Of a DNA stretch of 8,354 bases, positions 1 through 8,354 are shown piece after piece (positions within the stretch are counted from its first letter, which is position 1; every line of letters begins with the position of its first letter). The DNA is from a virus (lineage: Duplodnaviria; Heunggongvirae; Uroviricota; Caudoviricetes), in IMG/VR virus record IMGVR_UViG_2671180574_000007, positions 1-8,354 of that record; one strand, written 5' to 3'. The translations under genes and the position numbers were made by a program. Below the pieces are notes generated by a model. It had not been told where the DNA came from and did not search any database. It saw only the letters and a list, made by a program, of their open reading frames with translations.

Positions 1-122
1 GAAGCATGGGCTGAGCGGCAGTTAAAAAAGGTAACTAGGTAACAAGGTTGATTTTTCCGGAATCTGTGGTAAATTCGTCATAACGATGGGCGTTTTATGC
101 CTGACGTTAGAAGAGTTTCTAC

Positions 123-146
123 AACCCGCCGCCGAGCGGGTTTTTT
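123..146 (+). terminator. Rho-independent terminator (stem cccgc/gcggg, 6-nt loop, T6 tail)
   Basis: Hairpin 125-129/136-140 with flanking A-T pairs, followed by TTTTTT at 141-146; sits downstream of a frame-1 stop at 40-42. Confidence 0.6.
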
Positions 147-266
147 ATGACTGAAATCGCGTCAGTACAGTAAACGCGCTGGTGGCGGTGAATACCTGTC
201 TTTCAGCTTGCTGGCTTTTTCGACAAGAGTTATTGGTGTGTCACGTTAACCGGAAAAGGAAAAGAC

Positions 267-464
267 ATGCTAAAACAGCAGGATATGACAGAAACCGCCA
301 GAGTGGTGTTTAATGAATTAAGCGTTACCGAACCGGCGACAGTCGGGGAGATAGCGCAGAATACTTACCTTTCACGCGAACGCTGCCAGTTAATACTGAC
401 CCAGCTGGTTATGGCGGGTCTGGCAGACTATCAGTTCGGTTGTTACAGACGCCTTCCGCAGTGA
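267..464 (+). CDS. Small winged-helix DNA-binding protein, FaeA/PapI-like (hypothetical regulator, 65 aa)
   Basis: ATG with AGGA-type Shine-Dalgarno about 8 nt upstream; pattern VVFNEL...TVGEIAQNTYLSRERCQLILTQLVMAGL resembles PapI/FaeA-type small winged-helix regulators; intrinsic terminator overlaps the stop codon. Confidence 0.5.
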   Translation: MLKQQDMTETARVVFNELSVTEPATVGEIAQNTYLSRERCQLILTQLVMAGLADYQFGCYRRLPQ

Positions 465-476
465 AGGCTTTTTTAT
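450..476 (+). terminator. Rho-independent terminator overlapping the stop of the 65-aa ORF
   Basis: Perfect 6-bp stem gccttc(451-456)/gaaggc(463-468), 6-nt loop, then TTTTTT(469-474)ATTTG. Confidence 0.65.
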
Positions 477-493
477 TTGTGGTAAATGGGCGG

Positions 494-582
494 CTGGTGG
501 GTGTTAGGGGCACCCACCAGCCATCTGCTCATGCGTTGGGTTCACAAGCAAACCTCAGGCCCACTGCTTTGCGCAAAAGCAG
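494..582 (+). promoter_or_regulatory. Structured leader upstream of the methyltransferase gene (two stable hairpins, neither terminator-like)
   Basis: Perfect 10-bp inverted repeat ctggtgggtg/cacccaccag (494-503/511-520, 7-nt loop) and 7-bp stem ctgcttt/aaagcag (564-570/576-582); no T-run after either. Confidence 0.4.
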
Positions 583-614
583 AATGAGCCTATCAGAGAC
601 AGGCTTAATGATCC

Positions 615-1673
615 ATGCTTAATACTGTAAAAATATCCAGTTGTGAGTTAATCAACGCCGACTGCCTGGAATTTATCCGGTCGTTACCCGAAAATTCTGT
701 TGACCTGATAGTCACGGACCCGCCGTACTTTAAAGTGAAGCCTGAGGGCTGGGATAACCAGTGGAAGGGCGACGATGATTACCTGAAGTGGCTGGACCAG
801 TGTCTGGCGCAGTTCTGGCGGGTGCTGAAACCTGCCGGAAGTCTTTACCTGTTCTGTGGTCATCGCCTGGCATCTGATATCGAAATCATGATGCGTGAAC
901 GCTTCAGTGTGCTGAACCATATTATCTGGGCGAAGCCGTCCGGACGCTGGAACGGATGCAACAAGGAAAGCCTGCGGGCGTATTTCCCCGCCACAGAGCG
1001 CATTCTGTTCGCGGAACATTATCAGGGGCCGTATCGTCCGAAAGATGCCGGGTATGCGGCGAAGGGCAGTGCACTGAAACAGCATGTGATGGCCCCGCTG
1101 ATTTCTTACTTTCGTGATGCGCGAGCTGCCCTGGGGATAACGGCAAAACAGATTGCAGATGCCACAGGAAAGAAAAACATGGTGTCGCACTGGTTCAGTG
1201 CCGGTCAGTGGCAGTTGCCGAATGAAAGCGATTATCTGAAATTACAGGCGCTGTTTGCCCGGGTGGCAGAAGAGAAGCATCGGCGTGGTGAACTGGAAAA
1301 GCTCCACCACCAGCTGGTGGATACGTATACCTCACTGAACCGGCAGTATGCGGAGCTGCTGAGTGAATATAAACATCTGCGGCGGTATTTTGGCGTGACG
1401 GTGCAGGTGCCGTATACCGATGTGTGGACGCATAAACCGGTGCAGTTCTATCCCGGGAAACATCCGTGCGAAAAACCGGCAGAAATGCTGCAGCAGATAA
1501 TCAGCGCTAGCAGTCGTCCGGGTGACCTGATTGCAGATTTTTTCATGGGGTTGGGTTCGACAGTGAAAGCGGCACTGGCGCTCGGGCGTCGTGCAATTGG
1601 CGTTGAGCTGGAGACTGAACGTTTTGAGCAGACGGTTCGGGAAGTACAGGATTTAGTCAGCCAGAACGGATGA
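615..1673 (+). CDS. DNA methyltransferase, beta-class (motif IV before motif I), probable N6-adenine specificity; orphan (no adjacent restriction enzyme)
   Basis: 352-aa ORF; N-terminal LIVTDPPYF (motif IV, DPPY) and C-terminal DFFMGLGST (motif I, FxGxG AdoMet site); central insert with HTH-like/coiled-coil segment typical of a target-recognition region. Weak Shine-Dalgarno. Confidence 0.88.
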   Translation: MLNTVKISSCELINADCLEFIRSLPENSVDLIVTDPPYFKVKPEGWDNQWKGDDDYLKWLDQCLAQFWRVLKPAGSLYLFCGHRLASDIEIMMRERFSVLNHIIWAKPSGRWNGCNKESLRAYFPATERILFAEHYQGPYRPKDAGYAAKGSALKQHVMAPLISYFRDARAALGITAKQIADATGKKNMVSHWFSAGQWQLPNESDYLKLQALFARVAEEKHRRGELEKLHHQLVDTYTSLNRQYAELLSEYKHLRRYFGVTVQVPYTDVWTHKPVQFYPGKHPCEKPAEMLQQIISASSRPGDLIADFFMGLGSTVKAALALGRRAIGVELETERFEQTVREVQDLVSQNG

Positions 1674-1713
1674 TATTGAAGAATTAATTACGCGTCGTTA
1701 TTATGCGGCTCCC

Positions 1714-1789
1714 GGCCCTTTAGCTCAGTGGTGAGAGCGAGCGACTCATAATCGCTTGGTCGTTGGTTCAAACCCAACAGGGGCCACCA
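1714..1789 (+). tRNA. tRNA with anticodon CAU, tRNA-Ile2-like (lysidine-dependent AUA decoder); elongator tRNA-Met not excluded
   Basis: Hand-folded cloverleaf: acceptor 1714-1720/1779-1785 (one G-U), D-stem gctc/gagc, anticodon stem agcga/tcgct with loop cTCATAa (anticodon 1747-1749), T-arm gttgg-ttcaaac-ccaac, discriminator A, encoded CCA. Acceptor and anticodon stems resemble E. coli ileX-type tRNA from memory. Confidence 0.85.
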
Positions 1790-1797
1790 TATCTATC

Positions 1798-1836
1798 AAG
1801 GGGTTACGTTAACAGCGTGACCCCTTCGTTTTTTCT
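1798..1836 (+). terminator. Rho-independent terminator downstream of the tRNA
   Basis: 7-bp stem aaggggt(1798-1804)/acccctt(1820-1826) with structured loop, followed by cgTTTTTT (1829-1834). Confidence 0.65.
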
Positions 1837-2115
1837 AGGATACCTATAGGATACCGTGACAGAGTATAAGCAGGTATAAAAACAACAAGTTACGCAACAT
1901 CATACCTGTCATGAAACTTTAACTATCCGACATGATAGCTGGTCGATGATCACGGATAATCCGTTATGTGGATCCCCATATCGGCATCAGGCCCACCAGC
2001 GTGAAGCGTTTTTCATTTTTCGCGGGTATAAAAAATCGATGGGGCTGGCAGTCCGGAAGACGTCAGGGTACAGAGATTTGACCCGCCCCTCCCTGTGCAT
2101 GGGCACAATAAGTAA

Positions 2116-2139
2116 CCGAAGGCGGAATTCCGCCCTCGG
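2116..2139. repeat. 24-bp near-perfect palindrome (11 of 12 pairs) centred on GAATTC
   Basis: ccgaaggcggaattccgccctcgg; T-rich flank on the minus-strand side, so it could act as a weak terminator for the convergent minus-strand cluster. Confidence 0.55.
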
Positions 2140-2172
2140 TACTCACATATGAGAAACGATATTTCTTCCTCT

Positions 2173-2253
2173 GATACCCAAAATATGGGTATCACAAGTA
2201 ACCCCCAAAATCTGGGTGTTGCTCTTACTACCCAAACTACGGGTAGTTTCCGT
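2173..2253. repeat. Three tandem 27-bp units, each containing a dyad-symmetric core ACCCAAA-N4-GGGT
   Basis: Units 2173-2199, 2200-2226, 2227-2253; cores gatacccaaaatatgggtatc (perfect 8-bp arms), aacccccaaaatctgggtgtt, actacccaaactacgggtagt; centre-to-centre spacing 27 bp. Confidence 0.7.
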
Positions 2254-2265
2254 AATTTCATGGTC

Positions 2266-2285
2266 GAGTTGCAGATCTGCAACTC
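2266..2285. repeat. Perfect 20-bp palindrome centred on AGATCT
   Basis: gagttgcagatctgcaactc, 10 of 10 pairs; no U-run on either side. Confidence 0.7.
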
Positions 2286-2330
2286 ACCCACCAGCCAACG
2301 CAATTTTGCGTTATCGGGAATATCAGCAAG

Positions 2331-2618
2331 TTACCGCCGCAGCCGTTCCGGCTTCTTCCACTGGTAAGTATTTTTCGCGCTCTCCCTCCGTTGTTGAGAA
2401 CGGCGACGGTATGCCAGCAACTCAAGGACTCTTGTTCGTATGTTGCGCATATCCACGCCGTTAAGCTCAATACCGTCACGGAGCATCACCTCAGCCACCA
2501 CACGCGCGTAATTTTCAGCGGTGACTGTATCCGGCTGCGCGGCCTGTTCGTCAGCCAACTGGCTGATTCCACCAGCACAGCGGATTAATCGCAGTATTTC
2601 AGATTCGGTCATTATCAT
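2331..2618 (-). CDS. Hypothetical 95-aa protein translationally coupled to the small terminase gene; possibly a truncated remnant
   Basis: ATG at 2616-2618 overlaps the TGA of the upstream gene (ATGA coupling); Arg-rich C-terminal tail (RRRSQQRRESAKNTYQWKKPERLRR) runs into non-coding palindromic DNA; no recognisable motif. Confidence 0.45.
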   Translation of the reverse strand: MIMTESEILRLIRCAGGISQLADEQAAQPDTVTAENYARVVAEVMLRDGIELNGVDMRNIRTRVLELLAYRRRSQQRRESAKNTYQWKKPERLRR

Positions 2619-3100
2619 GCCTGTTTTGCGACCTCATTCACTACGTCATTTTTTACCATCCGGCTGATAATCTGATTACGCAAATCGTCAATAATTGACT
2701 GCACTCTGTTTACTGCCATCGGTTTAAGCCCGGCATCACGTGCCAGAATATTGGGGAGTTTTGCCAGTTCCTCGCTTACGATTTCCCCCCATATAGCCAT
2801 CTCTTTTCGCACATCATCGGCGGGTATGAGTTGCGCCGTTTCCTGTTCGAACTTGAGGCGCTCACGTTCGGACTGATACCAGGCCTTACGGTCATGTGGC
2901 TCCATTTCTTCCAGTGATGCCGGAACGGGAAGATCAAGAAAACAGGTCAGAATGTCAGTCACCCGATAGAGTTTCAGCTTGTCATGCCCTCCGGCTGGCT
3001 GGATGTTTTTCAGCCTTGCCGCCGCAGTCTGACGACATATTCCCGCTATCGCCGCCAGTTGATTAATGTTCAGCATCAGATTTTTCAGTTCTCGATCCAT
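2615..3100 (-). CDS. Terminase small subunit, lambda Nu1-like (DNA packaging protein), about 161 aa
   Basis: Start placed at the internal ATG (3098-3100) preceded by GGAG 5 nt upstream; the six-frame ORF extends to 3187 without a Shine-Dalgarno. N-terminal HTH pattern LNINQLAAIAGICRQTAAARLKN...GG..KL.LY and downstream helical region align by eye with lambda Nu1. Confidence 0.65.
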   Translation of the reverse strand: MDRELKNLMLNINQLAAIAGICRQTAAARLKNIQPAGGHDKLKLYRVTDILTCFLDLPVPASLEEMEPHDRKAWYQSERERLKFEQETAQLIPADDVRKEMAIWGEIVSEELAKLPNILARDAGLKPMAVNRVQSIIDDLRNQIISRMVKNDVVNEVAKQA

Positions 3101-3371
3101 ACCCGCTCCAGAATGTTTTAAACATGCATCTTGCGAACAACTTTCAGAAGAGTTCAAAAAATGCGCTATATGTTGAGCATAAAACAAGCAAAACTAACAT
3201 ACCAAAAATAAAAATACTTAAAATTCAATATCATATGAAGATGATGATGACGAATGAAAATGCAAAAACTAGCCTTTTTCCGCGCCGCTCCCGCCCCGCG
3301 GCAGGCCACCTCACCGGGAGGACCCACCCAAAAAAGGCGACTGTCACTATTGTTTATGCTCCATGAGCGAC

Positions 3372-3393
3372 AAAACCGCCCGCAGGCGGTTTT
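3372..3393. terminator. Bidirectional intrinsic terminator hairpin
   Basis: aaaaccgcc-cgca-ggcggtttt: 9-bp stem including A/T arms, 4-nt loop; T-run on both strands; lies about 18 nt downstream of the gpI-like stop on the minus strand. Confidence 0.65.
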
Positions 3394-3410
3394 ACATAAA
3401 ACGTTTTGTA

Positions 3411-4052
3411 TCAGCGACCAATCACCACAATCTGGCCGCCATCCCCTTCATCTGCCGTGCTGATCTCTTGCGAAATCACCCGCGACCCGACGCGCATTTC
3501 ACCGTACAGAACAGGCACAACATTGCCCTGGGCAACCATGTTATCCAGAGAGGAGAAATAGGTGTTCTGCTTACCGTTATCCGTGGTGCTGGCTGTTGCT
3601 GTGCTGGCTTTCGGTGCCAGCATCTGTGCAACACCACCAAGTGTCATCGCCGCCCCCATTGAAAAGAGAATGTCACTGAAAGCGATACTGATTCCTGGCA
3701 TCCAGATTGCCGTAGCAATCAGCGCCGCACCAAGCACCGCCTGAAACACGCCGCCACTTTTGGCACCAGCCAGACGCGGTACGATGTGGATCACGGCACC
3801 ATTTTCCAGCGGTTCATTAAGACGGGCTGATAATTCGTTTTCGCCTGTATCACGCCCGGCAATACGCACCTGATACCAACCATCGCTCAGTTTCTGACGA
3901 AACGCTGGGATCTGCATGGCCAGCGCCCGGATGGCTTCGGCCCCCGTTTTCACATGAAGATCGATGCGGCGGCCAAATCGTTGTAAATCCCCGTAAAGGC
4001 AGATGCGTGCCATGCCCGGTGACGCCAGAGGGAGTGTGTGCGTCGCTGCCAT
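3411..4052 (-). CDS. Phage lambda gpI-like tail (tip) assembly protein
   Basis: 213-aa ORF with N-terminal ubiquitin-like region, central hydrophobic Gly/Ala-rich segment and C-terminal block TTDNGKQNTYFSSLDNMVAQGNV.PVLYGEMRVGSRV.SQEISTADEG that matches lambda tail assembly protein I as recalled from memory; GAGAGG Shine-Dalgarno about 10 nt upstream. Confidence 0.6.
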   Translation of the reverse strand: MAATHTLPLASPGMARICLYGDLQRFGRRIDLHVKTGAEAIRALAMQIPAFRQKLSDGWYQVRIAGRDTGENELSARLNEPLENGAVIHIVPRLAGAKSGGVFQAVLGAALIATAIWMPGISIAFSDILFSMGAAMTLGGVAQMLAPKASTATASTTDNGKQNTYFSSLDNMVAQGNVVPVLYGEMRVGSRVISQEISTADEGDGGQIVVIGR

Positions 4053-4141
4053 TTGTCGGTATACCTCTCTCGTTTGCTCAGTTGTTCAGGAATATGGTGC
4101 GGCAGCTCGCCGCCCCACGTGTTCAAAGTACCGCCTTGTTG

Positions 4142-6055
4142 TCATGCTCCATTCGATTTCAGCAATCCACGATAATCGAGGGCCGCGACACCTGCATCTA
4201 TGCGCACCTTCCAGGCGACACCATCAACAGTAAAGCCCACCTGCTCCTCAAGATATGGCGTATCCATACCATCAAGATAAGCGACTTCTATTGTGTCCAT
4301 CCCCTTAGCTGCGGCTACATACCATTCCTTGCTATTGGCCTTATCAAGACGTGGCTCAACAATTACTTCTGCCATATCTTTCACAACGTTAATGATGCCG
4401 GGGTTCTGATTGATAGTGCCCTCATCACCAACCGGAAAGACTGATGACGATGACAGAATGGCGCGACGCGCGGCAGATTCCAGCGCGGCAGGGACCAGAA
4501 CAAAAGCAGGGGTAATATTCAGTGAGTCGCCGTTAGCATCCTCCTGGAGGCGCATCAGCTTACGGGCTTCATCAAGCCCCACCATGTCCATATCCTTCGC
4601 AATAAGATTTTTATGATCGGCATGGAATAACGCTTTACCATCCGTAAACTTGCCGTTGCTGGTTAACAGGAGATAAACCAGATTGCCAACTGTTCTGGCG
4701 GCTGCGCGTCCCATCGCCATGGGGATTGTAGTTAACTGGGTCAGGTCATCGTTGATAATGGCCTGACGGGTAACGGAAAAAATATTCCCGTACGTGGCCA
4801 GCGCAATAGGTACACCTTTATCGCTGGTGGTGATGTATTTATATTCCGCACCTTCCGGTACTTTATCCAGCTTTGAAAAACCATTCAGACCAACGCGCTT
4901 TGCTTCATGAAAGTTTGAAAGCGAACCGGTACGCGTCCATTTCTGGAACGTTTCGCCGCTGTCCTGCCAGCCTTTCAGTACAGATTTTTCAGCCCCACCA
5001 GCCAGAATATGAGAAAAATCACTGCTGCTGTGTGTAAAAGCCGCATTAACAACCTGCGAGCGATTAATAAAACCACTCACAGTGATACCACGATCAACCA
5101 GTGATGCCTGGGCCATTTCAAAAAGGCTCATCATCGCGTAAGGGTTGCCTCGTTCAGGGCGTTCATACCCAAGACGGGAATAAAGCCCCTGACGAATTGC
5201 ATCACCTGTTATGTTTCCGTTTCCGGCATAGATATGAGGCGGGGTATTTTTATTGGATGGCGTGGACTCGCGCCCCAGCTCGTTCAACAGCTTTTCACGG
5301 GCCATTTCCGGTGTACATGATGCATCTTCCAGACACGCCATTTTGATCCCGTCGTAACGACTGCCGAACAGGCTAAACACTTCACTTATTCCATTGATGC
5401 GTTTCTGTTCATTACCAGCAATATTTGCCGCTCCCTGTGGCGGTGTAATCATTCCTTTAATGGTTTCCGGCATATGTAAAAAATCTCCTGTGCGCTTCGA
5501 TTCAATTCGCGCCATTGCTCTGACGGATGGCAACAATTCATCAGCAAAACCGTGCTTAAGGCATTCTTTCCCGTCCATCCAGGTTTCATCTTCCAGCATG
5601 GCGGTAATTTCCTGTGCTGATTTGCCCGTTTTTCTGGCATAAGCAGGGACTAACACGGTTTCCACCTTATCCAGCAAATCAGCATAATCACGCATATCAC
5701 CAGCATTTCCGCCAGAGATACCCCACGGCTTATGTATCATCATCATGGCGTTTTCCGGCATCACAACACGATCGCCAGCCATTGCGACCACCGAAGCCAT
5801 TGAAGCCGCAACACCATCGATATAAACCGTAATGTCTGCCGGATGATTCCGTAGCAGGTTATAGATGGCGATGCCTTCAAACACATCACCACCTGGTGAA
5901 TGGATCCTCAGATTGATATGTGAAACATCGCCAAGGGCTTTCAGGTCTTCCGCGAACTGCTTTGCAGTAACACCGAAGCCGCCAATCTCCTCATAGATAG
6001 ATATATCCGCCGCTCCGCGAACATCCGCCGCCTTAATGGTGTACCAGCGATTCAT
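4142..6055 (-). CDS. Fusion protein: ClpP-like (S14) prohead protease N-terminal domain plus HK97-fold major capsid protein C-terminal domain
   Basis: 637 aa; N-terminal ...LRIHSPGGDVFEGIAIYN...GVAASMASVV...MMIHKPWG... carries ClpP catalytic Ser/His context; C-terminal roughly 330 aa has capsid-like architecture (motif-level assignment, weaker); ATGA overlap with upstream small ORF. Confidence 0.75.
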   Translation of the reverse strand: MNRWYTIKAADVRGAADISIYEEIGGFGVTAKQFAEDLKALGDVSHINLRIHSPGGDVFEGIAIYNLLRNHPADITVYIDGVAASMASVVAMAGDRVVMPENAMMMIHKPWGISGGNAGDMRDYADLLDKVETVLVPAYARKTGKSAQEITAMLEDETWMDGKECLKHGFADELLPSVRAMARIESKRTGDFLHMPETIKGMITPPQGAANIAGNEQKRINGISEVFSLFGSRYDGIKMACLEDASCTPEMAREKLLNELGRESTPSNKNTPPHIYAGNGNITGDAIRQGLYSRLGYERPERGNPYAMMSLFEMAQASLVDRGITVSGFINRSQVVNAAFTHSSSDFSHILAGGAEKSVLKGWQDSGETFQKWTRTGSLSNFHEAKRVGLNGFSKLDKVPEGAEYKYITTSDKGVPIALATYGNIFSVTRQAIINDDLTQLTTIPMAMGRAAARTVGNLVYLLLTSNGKFTDGKALFHADHKNLIAKDMDMVGLDEARKLMRLQEDANGDSLNITPAFVLVPAALESAARRAILSSSSVFPVGDEGTINQNPGIINVVKDMAEVIVEPRLDKANSKEWYVAAAKGMDTIEVAYLDGMDTPYLEEQVGFTVDGVAWKVRIDAGVAALDYRGLLKSNGA

Positions 6056-6261
6056 TGTTCCCCCACCGATGCAAAACCATTCTGATTAAGCCAGGTGTTT
6101 ACGGCATGTCTGACAATCTGCGCCACACCTGGTAATGGTTGGTCAGGATGATGATTTATATGGTCGATCCTGTACTGCTTAAGGCGCATAACGGTCTGCG
6201 CATCCAGATGAACGGAACCACCTCTGGTATCACCTGTGTTCAGGTCATTAATACAACTCAC
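6052..6261 (-). CDS. Hypothetical 69-aa protein, first gene of the capsid operon
   Basis: GTG start with strong GAGGAAG Shine-Dalgarno 5 nt upstream; stop overlaps the fusion-gene ATG; AT-rich putative promoter region upstream (6262-6360). Confidence 0.55.
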   Translation of the reverse strand: MSCINDLNTGDTRGGSVHLDAQTVMRLKQYRIDHINHHPDQPLPGVAQIVRHAVNTWLNQNGFASVGEQ

Positions 6262-6361
6262 AGCAACTTCCTCTGACTGACTAAACTATGCACATTATTG
6301 ATCTATAAAAGTGGTAAATAAACATATTTCTATCATAAAAACAGATTAATTAGATTCAGAC

Positions 6362-6387
6362 ACAAAAAAGCCGGATTTCTCCGGCTT
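6362..6387 (-). terminator. Rho-independent terminator on the minus strand between the origin and the capsid operon
   Basis: 8-bp stem aagccgga/tccggctt (6368-6375/6380-6387), 4-nt loop; on the minus strand followed by TTTTTTGTG. Confidence 0.7.
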
Positions 6388-6514
6388 CTGTCACTCGTTG
6401 CTTAAAACGGTATGTTATCCCCGTACGGATCATCATTCCCCGCCTGTTGTTTTGGTGTGCTTCGCTGTCATAGGCTTTATCTCACAGCAGTAAATTAAAA
6501 TTTTTGCGTTTTAA

Positions 6515-6745
6515 CCCTTCACCTGTTCACCTTTTGATATTTTCTCTATTAATTCATAATGTTAAGGGGTGAACAGTTTCAAAAAAACTATTCACCAACT
6601 GTTCACCACTGTTCACCCTTGAAGCTCAATAAACAATCAAAAAGGTGAACAGTGAATAGTTTGGTGAACAGTTCATAAATAACTGCTCACCCTATAATAT
6701 ACTGATATAAAAGATATTTATGACAGGGTGAACAGTGGTGAACAG
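6515..6745. repeat. Iteron cluster: putative P4-type replication origin (octamer TGTTCACC / GGTGAACA)
   Basis: Perfect octamers at 6524-6531(+), 6568-6575(-), 6600-6607(+), 6610-6617(+), 6644-6651(-), 6663-6670(-), 6727-6734(-), 6737-6744(-), plus degenerate copies (6517-6523, 6590-6596, 6652-6659, 6684-6691); AT-rich flanks; directly downstream of the primase stop. Confidence 0.8.
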
Positions 6746-6758
6746 TTATTCCATAAGT

Positions 6759-8354
6759 TTAATTTTTGCTATCGTCATTAGTGACCGATACACATGATGG
6801 CATCCAGTCTTCTGATTCCTCCGTCAGTGTCACGTTTGAACGCAAACCGTGCTTCGTTTTCCGTTTCATATACTCCCTGCCATATTCCGCCATTGCCCCC
6901 GGCATATCTTTACCGAAGCGCGTCAGTGTTACAGGTTTACCAAACCCATGTGCCCTCATATAAGCCAGATAGGCATGATAGAGATACCTGCGTGGGCTGA
7001 ATGGCACAATTTCAGCATTACCCACTAACAGGCCATCACACATTACCGACGCCATGAGATAGCCGCAGAAGTCCACCAGCGAATCCCCCTCTCGCTTTAT
7101 CGCCAGTGCTTCTTCAGATTTCTGCTGCTCATATAACAGGCGTCTGGCTTCGTCCTGGTCAGCAAACCGTGTAAGCAGATGGCGAATCACTACCGCCAGC
7201 TCACCTTCTATTTTTTCCGCCAGCATTGGATCACGTTCGTTCTCCGGTACAACTTCCGAAAAATTGAATATCACCCGACGACGTGAGATCCCCCCACTGC
7301 GGTCACTGAATGACATGGCGTTATTGTTAACCGCCAGCACTACTGCCGGAATACGCGTTGAGTAGGGGGCTTTGTGTTTCGGGTCAATTGCCACCTTGTC
7401 ACCGCCTGTAATAGCCTTAATCCCTGCCCCATCACCAGCGTAGCGGGTCATATCCGGCATGATAATCAGCGAAAAGCCAACCACTAACGCGCGTTCCCTT
7501 GCATCTTCCAGCGCCTTCATGCTTGCCGATACTGTGTTGGCCTTACCCGCCAGCATGGTGCAAATCTCCGCCATCACGCTTTTACCACTTCCCCCTGGAC
7601 CTGTTACCTCAATGAATAACTGCCAGTCGTACCGGTTCGCCAGCACCATGAATAATGCAGCCAGTACGCGATCCGCCTTGCGGTCATTCTCAGCCACCGA
7701 ACGGCGTAACCACTTCCAGAAATTCGGCGCATGTGTTGCCAGCGTTTCCCCCTCTGCTGGTGGGCTGAAAGGTAATTCACTGGCAATTAACAACCAGTCG
7801 TTTTTGTTATGCTCCCGAAAATTACCTGTTCTGGTATCAAATACCCCGTTACTGAATCCAATCAGGTTACGGGCTGTATTCCCCATAACAGGCAAACTTA
7901 ACTTCATGGTATCGACCGCCGATTTAATGGCGTTCTGCGAATAGCTGATCTCCGCATCAATGAAAATCTGCGCCATAGCTCGCTGTAATTCTTTATCCTG
8001 TACTGGCTCCCATACAACGCCGTTGTAATGGTGAACAGTGTCAGAGTCAGCATGAATCGCCAGTTCACCGCCATAATGTGCCAGGAGAACTTCGCCGCGT
8101 TGACTTGCTCCCATCTGGTTAAGCGCCAGTGATGAAGCGTTATCGTCTTTTACCCGCTCTTTTTTCTTTACAGGCAGTTCAACTACCTTTTTCTTTTCCG
8201 CCAGCTCTGCCCGTTCACGTTCCAGATATTCACGCCAGTTCTCCCGTTTCTGGCTGTGCATTCCTTCAGGGTAATAATCAGCATCCCTGACACCTGCCTC
8301 TGCCAGTTTCTGCCCGATGGTATTAACAAGCCCCGGACGCAATAACCCCGCCTG
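6759..8354 (-). CDS. Primase/helicase of the phage-plasmid P4 alpha family (C-terminal part; N-terminus beyond the window end)
   Basis: Reading frame stays open to the window edge (the 8342 start in the ORF track is a TTG, not the true start); Walker A GPGGSGKS; stop TAA at 6759-6761; followed by matching iterons. Confidence 0.85.
   Translation of the reverse strand, partial: QAGLLRPGLVNTIGQKLAEAGVRDADYYPEGMHSQKRENWREYLERERAELAEKKKVVELPVKKKERVKDDNASSLALNQMGASQRGEVLLAHYGGELAIHADSDTVHHYNGVVWEPVQDKELQRAMAQIFIDAEISYSQNAIKSAVDTMKLSLPVMGNTARNLIGFSNGVFDTRTGNFREHNKNDWLLIASELPFSPPAEGETLATHAPNFWKWLRRSVAENDRKADRVLAALFMVLANRYDWQLFIEVTGPGGSGKSVMAEICTMLAGKANTVSASMKALEDARERALVVGFSLIIMPDMTRYAGDGAGIKAITGGDKVAIDPKHKAPYSTRIPAVVLAVNNNAMSFSDRSGGISRRRVIFNFSEVVPENERDPMLAEKIEGELAVVIRHLLTRFADQDEARRLLYEQQKSEEALAIKREGDSLVDFCGYLMASVMCDGLLVGNAEIVPFSPRRYLYHAYLAYMRAHGFGKPVTLTRFGKDMPGAMAEYGREYMKRKTKHGLRSNVTLTEESEDWMPSCVSVTNDDSKN

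Follow-up and report, generated by a model that had tools for sequence, protein, structure and literature searches.

The window analysed here, an 8,354-nt stretch (positions 1 to 8,354 of the IMG/VR virus record IMGVR_UViG_2671180574_000007), holds the late end of a Gram-negative phage-inducible chromosomal island (PICI), a phage satellite, with a primase, an origin, a ClpP-protease/capsid fusion gene, a probable cos site, a DUF1441 gene and a tRNA-Ile2 attachment site (Table 1). Wedged between the capsid fusion on one side and the small-terminase-like DUF1441 gene on the other, where an original prediction made from the sequence alone had placed it, lies a homologue of the lambda tail-tip gene I, which is the subject of this report. 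Open reading frames (ORFs) were taken from a six-frame listing of the window and proteins were assigned by profile searches (Pfam, PHROG).

A full-length gene I homologue

The ORF had been described as intact and gpI-like, and the profile searches that were to check its homology were positive. It matches the Pfam family Lambda_tail_I (PF06805) over residues 14-97 (E=3.9e-23, 82 bits against a cutoff of 23.8) and the tail assembly protein family phrog_32 over residues 12-204 on profile positions 2-202 (E=1.8e-83), while its residues 126-212 match PDB 9e7m (E=2.6e-43). The alignment with lambda gpI itself (PDB 8iyk chain I, E=5.4e-104) runs end to end, with residues 1-213 on 1-223. The 3411-4052 ORF is thus a genuine full-length lambda gpI homologue.

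The protein consists of an N-terminal ubiquitin-like Lambda_tail_I domain, a hydrophobic segment (approximately residues 97-147, Kyte-Doolittle maxima 1.2-1.9) and a conserved C-terminal plug and beta-strand domain, with an AKSGG motif at residues 96-100. It is ~85% identical in amino acids to lambda gpI over the full length, the differences including a 10-residue deletion in the hydrophobic linker and a plug segment that starts with KASTATAS in the island and with KARTPRIQ in lambda, and the C-terminal domain is almost unchanged. KASTATAS is also present in an ordinary prophage (locus L095), and a sequence specific to the island protein, by which it can be distinguished from the version of a helper, is APKASTATASTTDNGK. 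In the lambda virion, gpI forms a trimeric plug or tripod in the tail-tip lumen, holds the C-terminus of gpH and pairs its beta-strands with gpJ; its two hydrophobic helices may enter the outer membrane on opening of the tip, and the protein is resolved from residue 101, right after AKSGG (PMC10721106, PMC11101478). According to these recent tail-tip structures, gpI is more than an assembly factor. The island protein shares with lambda gpI (TAPI; PF06805; PDB 8IYK, 8K35, 8XCG, 9E7M) the N-terminal domain, the AKSGG motif before residue 101, the hydrophobic helix region and the C-terminal plug/beta-strand domain. It differs in context, as the gene lies outside a tail operon, with 53 codons left of K and nothing of L, M, H and J, and as a satellite encodes it while the helper supplies all of its partners.

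A piece of a tail operon next to the capsid gene

The I gene starts 89 nt downstream of the stop codon of the ClpP-protease/capsid fusion gene, in agreement with the ~90 bp first estimated. In siphovirus tail-tip operons, genes of the gpI family sit between K and J; here the flanks are the island capsid gene and the cos/DUF1441 region. Phage homology extends well beyond the ORF, as a block at 3358-4112 is 86-94% identical in nucleotides to the K-I region of phage mEp460 and of E. coli prophages, which is the kind of similarity to prophage late genes by which late-gene capture in PICIs has been recognised (PMC10111431). The absence of K and J fragments that had been proposed applies to J only, since the phage homology in the window stops 8 nt short of the J start codon. 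A K remnant is present: a search of 4053-4141, where residual K sequence was to be sought, found the 3' end of the gene reaching 4112. K runs 103 nt into I, as it does in lambda, and in all related islands the PGAP annotation of the remnant is a pseudogene, a truncated ‘phage tail protein’.

The same holds for the signals around the gene. I had been credited with a ribosome-binding site (RBS) of its own and a dedicated terminator, and both elements do exist; they are not dedicated, since the RBS belongs to the native K/I overlap and the hairpin to the I-J spacer, and because both fall inside the phage block and are conserved in phages they are inherited rather than satellite-specific. By RNA folding, the hairpin has an 8-bp stem followed by U-rich sequence. 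A moron would have its own promoter and terminator; here there is only this inherited hairpin, downstream of the gene.

Table 1. Features of the window, in order of position (aa, amino acids).
Feature	Position	Strand	Remarks
DNA methylase gene	615-1673		adjoins tRNA(CAU); prophage side
tRNA, CAU anticodon (tRNA-Ile2-like)	1714..1789	+	island attachment site; tRNA/Rfam search
95-aa ORF	2331..2618	-	six-frame ORF list
DUF1441 / phrog_141 small-terminase-like gene	2615..3187	-	downstream neighbour of I; profiles
Probable cos site	3242..3325		93% identical to L002 24780-24863, just upstream of a lambdoid prophage DUF1441 small-terminase gene
Half of split terminator	3330..3345	-	plus strand AAAAAAGGCGAC-TGTC; on the minus strand the 3' arm and U-run
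Whole insert relative to I-less sister islands, 785 bp	3346..4130	-	filler 12 nt (3346-3357), phage DNA 755 nt (3358-4112), filler 18 nt (4113-4130)
Phage I-J intergenic spacer	3358..3410	-	limit of phage homology, 8 nt short of the J start position
Hairpin AAAACCGCC-UGCG-GGCGGUUUU	3372-3393	-	inside the I-J spacer; phage-inherited
Gene I homologue (gpI), 213 aa	3411..4052	-	Pfam, phrog_32, PDB 8iyk
K 3' remnant	3950..4112	-	last 53 codons and stop; 92-94% identical to residues 195-247 of phage K proteins
Ribosome-binding site of I, GAGAGAGG	4064-4071	-	within the K remnant; native phage K/I overlap
Other half of split terminator	4131..4141	-	plus strand CCGCC-TTGTTG; directly after the capsid stop codon (4142-4144)
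ClpP-like prohead protease / major capsid fusion gene, 637 aa	4142..6055	-	upstream neighbour of I; profiles
69-aa ORF	between primase and capsid fusion	-	six-frame ORF list
Iterons GGTGAACAGT, direct and inverted cluster	6560-6760		downstream of primase; expected PICI replication origin
PICI primase (D5_N / DUF5906 / Pox_D5; D5-type)	6759..8354	-	runs past the window end; Pfam/PHROG profiles

Insertion into the capsid terminator

Comparison with islands that have no I gene reveals how the phage block is seated. In all of four I-less islands (92-100% identity) the capsid gene is followed by the sequence AAAAAA(A)GGCGGC-TRTC-GCCGCC-CTTGTTG-TCA (ending in the capsid stop), a perfect intrinsic terminator hairpin. 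The alignment of the window with the I-less sister island of strain N2250 breaks off at 3345 and resumes at 4134, two points that lie 5 nt from each other in the sister. The extra 785 bp are located between the loop and the 3' arm of this hairpin. The capsid gene beside them is the island's own, being 97% identical to the capsid gene of I-less islands, and not that of a prophage. No deletion could have restored a hairpin that is both perfect and conserved; islands without I therefore represent the ancestral state, and the 785 bp are an insertion.

Junction searches covered 5426 complete E. coli genomes. The I-less junction was found in 162 of them (91.8-100% identity), and the left and the right insert junctions in 23 each. 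These are the same 23 genomes, from which it follows that the insertion happened once, and no half-sites, longer or shorter forms or other intermediates were encountered among the 5426 genomes. The insert entered by one illegitimate recombination event. The I-bearing module is present in islands with three unrelated integrases, i.e. the tRNA-Ile2-targeting type, that of an island residing in a prophage terL, and a third type.

Intact copies and exchange with phage I genes

The gene is intact in all eight E. coli copies that were extracted and in all eight copies from metagenomes and IMG/VR, and no decaying copy was seen among these 16 with a full gene. A progressive deletion series with I as a decaying remnant, which the original prediction had allowed for, appeared neither among the 5426 genomes nor among the 16 copies. 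Three alleles can be distinguished: allele A, that of the window, encodes 213 aa, and alleles B1 and B2 encode 223 aa. In both B alleles the central part is lambda-type, in B2 the plug segment as well, and both keep the island-specific extreme C-terminus. The three alleles imply at least two gene conversions with phage (lambda-like) I genes. The closest I allele of an E. coli prophage has 93.6% nucleotide identity, and a comparison of island with phage alleles gives a dN/dS of 0.17-0.27, as does one among phages.

A further form of exchange is documented in two gut metagenome contigs (L260 1-12570, L261 1-5273), which start out as island sequence, with the capsid gene, the identical right junction, the CCG codon specific to the island and the initial ~150 nt of I. 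From there on, each continues with a different phage I allele, then with a full-length J, with lom and with a side tail fibre gene. The two contigs stem from separate events of homologous recombination between the cassette and tail operons of phages or phage-plasmids. We had also considered them as ancestral intermediates of a longer capture, which is out since they share the island junction and the CCG codon and differ in the phage allele, as expected of secondary recombinants. Partition genes (SopB, SopA) follow the tail genes in L260.

In E. coli A20 (L002 12760-23162), the I-bearing late module belongs to an island inside the large-terminase gene of a lambdoid prophage, and this prophage has its own K-I-J and a lambda-type tail, with an I protein 88% identical to that of the island.

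Orphan I genes in other satellites

The lambda-type cassette is not the only I gene outside a tail operon. With the island primase as anchor, 71 loci were fetched from GTDB species representatives, and four of these (Kluyvera ascorbata, K. georgiana, Enterobacter hormaechei, Serratia) have an orphan I homologue downstream of the primase and no K, L or J. These four are of the HK97/N15 type (phrog_32, E ~1e-70) and 64-75% identical to phage copies. HK97-type orphan I genes occur in Kluyvera, Citrobacter, Enterobacter, Serratia, Klebsiella and E. coli, and in three architectures: after terL in capsid-forming PICIs (cf-PICIs) at fis, after an AlpA-like gene in capsid-E/decoration PICIs, and after a truncated DUF1441 gene in ClpP-capsid PICIs, including complete contigs of ~11 kb. 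One E. coli ClpP-capsid PICI of the last kind uses the same tRNA-Ile2 site as the relatives of the window, and its capsid fusion is 79% identical. In cf-PICIs, I is found at the 3' accessory end, in one case beside an abortive-infection gene. One HK97-type homologue sits in an ordinary M-L-K-I-J tail operon.

Among the best 80 IMG/VR relatives, 44-45 were in a PICI context without K, L and J and 35 in a phage context, and in a neighbour-joining tree the satellite copies stand apart from the phage copies, with ~3-4 switches of context. Synonymous divergence (dS) between satellite copies is saturated, and their dN/dS of 0.04-0.25 places satellite I genes under purifying selection. Over the 90 C-terminal residues, satellite and phage copies hardly differ. 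None of the ~50 I-bearing PICI loci that were examined contains K, L or J.

In PICIs, the HK97-type I gene is usually followed by an overlapping 116-aa ORF and often then by a lipoprotein gene (L084 10600-10950; L090 11486-12222; L086 10117-10853). The 116-aa ORF has no PHROG family, and its only Pfam match, Phage_TAC_4, is not significant (E=0.027); on comparison it proved to be neither an N-terminal piece of J nor an HK97 moron. Homologues of the lipoprotein (111 aa, phrog_914) separate K from I in certain phages, as they do in the Pseudomonas pair AH14a/AH14b. The cf-PICI of Serratia sp. H1w (L017 18846-20116) has two tandem I paralogues, 51% identical, after its large-terminase gene.

The HK97-type orphan I genes and the window gene thus belong to the same family (phrog_32), and both are found at the end of the late zone in the absence of K, L and J. 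They differ in that the HK97-type proteins are 31-37% identical to that of the window, derive from HK97/N15-like phages, are older and diversified within satellites, and are usually coupled to the 116-aa partner, which the window does not have.

Island layout and genomic setting

Beyond 1793 the window is 98-99% identical to islands of 10-11 kb in E. coli chromosomes, which also encode an integrase, a helix-turn-helix (HTH)/AlpA-like regulator, an icd-like gene and DUF4222. Taken together, the window and its relatives exhibit the hallmarks of Gram-negative PICIs, i.e. integrase, AlpA/HTH regulator, primase with iteron origin, unidirectional genes and a length of ~10-15 kb. A complete I-bearing island was deposited as a circular ‘plasmid’ of 10,790 bp (NZ_CP148328.1, strain Z1323HEC0475), which hints that in this culture the island had excised and was replicating as an episome.

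Over positions 1-1793 the window matches the methylase-tRNA region of Shiga toxin (Stx)-converting lambdoid phages at 93-95% identity, and within the tRNA gene the 5' part is prophage-type, with the 3' end and everything rightward belonging to the island. The relatives occupy the chromosomal tRNA-Ile2 gene, the window island a prophage-borne tRNA copy, and another island a prophage terL. The window island is seated in the tRNA(CAU) gene of a Stx-like lambdoid prophage, with its genes antisense to the late direction of that prophage; such a helper-embedded configuration would be at a type of site absent from the list in PMC10111431.

The candidate cos element is a GC-rich sequence of 84 nt upstream of the DUF1441 gene. 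Related islands (L001 13861-13944; L004 10891-10974; L005 5938-6010) have a second cos-like copy between the primase and capsid genes, which is not in the window, and these two copies recall the cos1 and cos2 sites of EcCICFT073. The cos-like element and the episomal copy lend indirect support to induction, packaging and transfer of the island by a helper. For the DUF1441 gene, PGAP picks an internal Met start (161 aa). The gene is full length in the window, unlike in ClpP-capsid PICIs with HK97-type I, where DUF1441 is an N-terminal helix-turn-helix fragment of 62-85 aa overlapping the start of I (L007 7382-7639; L078 9781-10014; L086 9337-9525). In the island of E. coli L73 (L094 1-151), the DUF1441 gene is annotated with an internal stop and the adjacent I is intact. 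An Rfam scan of the window returned the tRNA only, and no PADLOC defence model matched I, the 116-aa ORF, the lipoprotein or the small ORFs of the window.

Relation to known satellites

The element is of a known kind, a Gram-negative PICI with a captured late gene, with an unusual and under-recognised cargo. The tRNA-Ile2 PICIs with CLP_protease among the Gram-negative PICIs with captured late genes (Williams lab 2023, PMC10111431) are the same island type with the same attachment site and four-zone layout, and their late zone, too, resembles late genes of prophages at the nucleotide level; the one I-bearing copy inside a prophage terminase gene is a counterpart of the helper-embedded PICIs in that study. 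The emphasis there differs, being on capsid genes and on the tail genes M and L as prophage signatures, and neither the insertion mechanism nor the recurrence of I is described. Lambda_tail_I appears only in the supplementary gene-profile list, for two Klebsiella islands, and homologues of M and L are absent from ~1400 satellites (Table 1 of PMC10111431).

Tail genes have, in effect, been used to tell satellites from phages. SatelliteFinder treats tail and lysis genes as ‘forbidden components’ and initially turned down 73 cf-PICIs because one tail or holin gene lay nearby (PMC10085698), while the cf-PICI paper defines these elements as being without tail genes. The island described here departs from this rule by an intact tail-tip gene inside it. 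Satellite-encoded structural proteins of the tail have been demonstrated only for the PICI-like elements (PLE) of Vibrio cholerae, which build chimeric tails whose tape-measure protein, tail assembly chaperone and baseplate hub come from the satellite (Mathur et al., Nature 2026, PMC12987554). The likeness lies in satellite versions of components of the helper tail interior and tip; in PLE these join hijacked helper parts, and the I-bearing island has the coding capacity for such a component and conserves the domain that is structural in lambda. PLE differ in the proteins concerned, in being 20-41% identical to those of the helper, in the myovirus helper and in the experimental proof, whereas here a single gene is ~85-94% identical to helper alleles.

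The other precedent is the Pseudomonas satellite phiAH14b, which carries a gene for tail assembly protein I and a lipoprotein gene (PMC4936722, 2016). There, too, an orphan I resides in a small P4/PICI-like satellite; it is 71-74% identical to the I of the helper and the sole region in common with it. Host and satellite lineage are different, and in phiAH14b a lipoprotein gene follows I. Its authors took I as not being part of the mature tail (PMC4936722), an assumption overturned by later structures, and noted its presence without explanation. A literature search on PICIs and tail assembly proteins, covering papers outside subscription journals, returned only this report and the supplementary table entry.

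Proposed function and alternatives

We favour the reading that I was captured by insertion and that its protein is probably built into helper tail tips as a plug subunit, to which we assign a probability of roughly 0.45. What was inserted in the loop of the capsid terminator, once and by illegitimate recombination, is 755 bp of a lambda-like tail operon, from the last 53 codons of K through I to the I-J spacer; the insert destroyed that terminator and brought along its own RBS and hairpin. The module has since spread to islands with three unrelated integrases and swapped internal tracts with phage I genes. Upon helper induction, I would be transcribed together with the capsid gene, a co-transcription suggested by the split terminator and the lack of a promoter before I. 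The island gpI would then probably be processed after AKSGG by the helper K protein, and its C-terminal part would join helper J, L and the tape-measure protein as a trimeric plug in the tail tip. The resulting tails would be chimeric, composed of helper parts and a satellite plug. Candidate payoffs are a secured or increased supply of the tail-tip initiator, an altered DNA ejection or entry for island-carrying particles, or compatibility with particular helpers.

Retention of I for a purpose in helper tail-tip assembly, the second scenario of the original prediction, seems plausible given the recurrence of orphan I genes in other PICIs, the purifying selection, the intact copies and the repeated gene conversion. 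Several observations weigh against it. Tails are common goods in the cell, so an island-specific benefit is not obvious. A promoter scan found no sigma-70-like promoter between 4053 and 4141, and the inherited hairpin escaped a simple terminator scan and makes no more than a modest terminator. The cassette is young (copies are 96-100% identical), hence its intactness weighs little, and one synonymous and one non-synonymous change within allele A are too little divergence for a test of selection. The lambda-type cassette is also rare, with 23 of 5426 genomes or ~12% of the islands that have this late module, and I-less sister islands are commoner, which means that I is dispensable for the island life cycle. 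Likewise, none of the 57 cf-PICIs with close relatives of one TerL carries I, so the HK97-type gene is accessory and not core.

Much of this would equally be expected of a neutral passenger, i.e. a random phage fragment pasted into a fragile hairpin during co-replication with the helper, still young and hitch-hiking with the capsid/cos module, whose protein is perhaps made and brings no gain. We regard this as a serious rival, the strongest of the alternatives, though less likely than a plug. Filler at both junctions and a hairpin loop as the site are typical of illegitimate repair, the insert is rare and recent and outnumbered by I-less islands, the cassette recombines freely with phage I genes, and gain and loss of helper late genes is a known trait of the late zone of PICIs (PMC10111431). 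What a passenger does not readily explain is that the capture is confined, almost to the nucleotide, to a single functional gene with RBS and hairpin, and that the ORF is intact even though the nearest prophage allele is only 93.6% identical to it. Nor does it account for the low dN/dS of the satellite I genes or for the choice of gene: K, L and J are missing from the ~50 I-bearing loci, and M and L from the ~1400 satellites of PMC10111431, yet I recurs, in four or more architectures of islands and also in a satellite of Pseudomonas.

Two further explanations are less likely than either a plug or a passenger. The island gpI might interfere, as a mismatched or dominant-negative plug that spoils the lambdoid tail tips of the helper or of competitors, by a logic similar to that of PLE11 Rta against ICP1 tails. 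Satellite copies of virion proteins do often redirect assembly, as Rpp does with TerS (PMC6739421) and as the PLE tail components and Rta do; I is found at the 3' accessory end of cf-PICIs and there once beside an abortive-infection gene; and the island allele differs from the lambda plug segment and from the I of the prophage that embeds it (88% in amino acids). Such sabotage is nonetheless improbable, given that transfer of the island needs the same tails and that the C-terminal domain which contacts J and H is almost invariant between satellites and phages, indicating normal assembly. The KASTATAS start is shared with the ordinary prophage L095, the PADLOC search matched no defence model, and among the cloned late-region genes of EcCICFT073, an island for which I has not been shown, only rppA blocked lambda (PMC6739421).

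Alternatively, the DNA homology and not the protein could be useful, as a handle for recombination with helper tail operons that serves the capture or exchange of genes or the formation of cointegrates. The three alleles with conversion tracts fit this, as do L260 and L261, which switch to phage sequence ~150 nt into I and run on into J, lom and the side tail fibre gene. We consider it very improbable, as it leaves the preserved frame and the low dN/dS of satellite I unexplained and as the L260/L261 recombinants lose the cos and small-terminase end of the island within the contig and look like dead ends. Finally, the ~10-kb deletion sparing I that had been suggested, by which an ancestor with everything from capsid through tail lost the part between capsid and I, has next to no probability left: it would suit the helper-type prophage order (capsid ... 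K-I-J) and the K remnant directly after the capsid gene, but it is ruled out by a 785-bp insert whose ends map no more than 4 nt apart in the intact conserved terminator hairpin of I-less islands and by the lack of intermediates in 5426 genomes, and the flanking capsid gene is island-type (97%) and the longer forms L260 and L261 are secondary, sharing the right junction and the CCG codon.

Implications for satellite biology

PICIs and cf-PICIs have been defined and searched for as elements without tail genes, and a recurring, conserved tail-tip gene inside them contradicts this rule. Islands with I may be rejected or trimmed at their ends by satellite detection tools. The window itself presents a clean and datable capture of a single helper gene, in which the gene was inserted in a terminator hairpin and later underwent conversion with alleles of helpers. 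Going beyond this one island, it is possible, if somewhat doubtful, that many enterobacterial PICIs (including cf-PICIs, which are said to steal nothing but tails) and at least one Pseudomonas satellite encode their own gpI plug that is assembled in helper tails, with chimeric tails as a general satellite strategy instead of one peculiar to Vibrio PLE, and the window as a fresh, independent acquisition of the lambda type. If true, the rule that satellites have no tail genes would systematically hide such islands. The lambda/HK97-E. coli system already offers I mutants, tail-tip structures and PICI transfer assays, which makes the role of the gpI plug and of its N-terminal domain testable. Should the island protein enter helper tails, this would be the second known case of tail parts made by a satellite.

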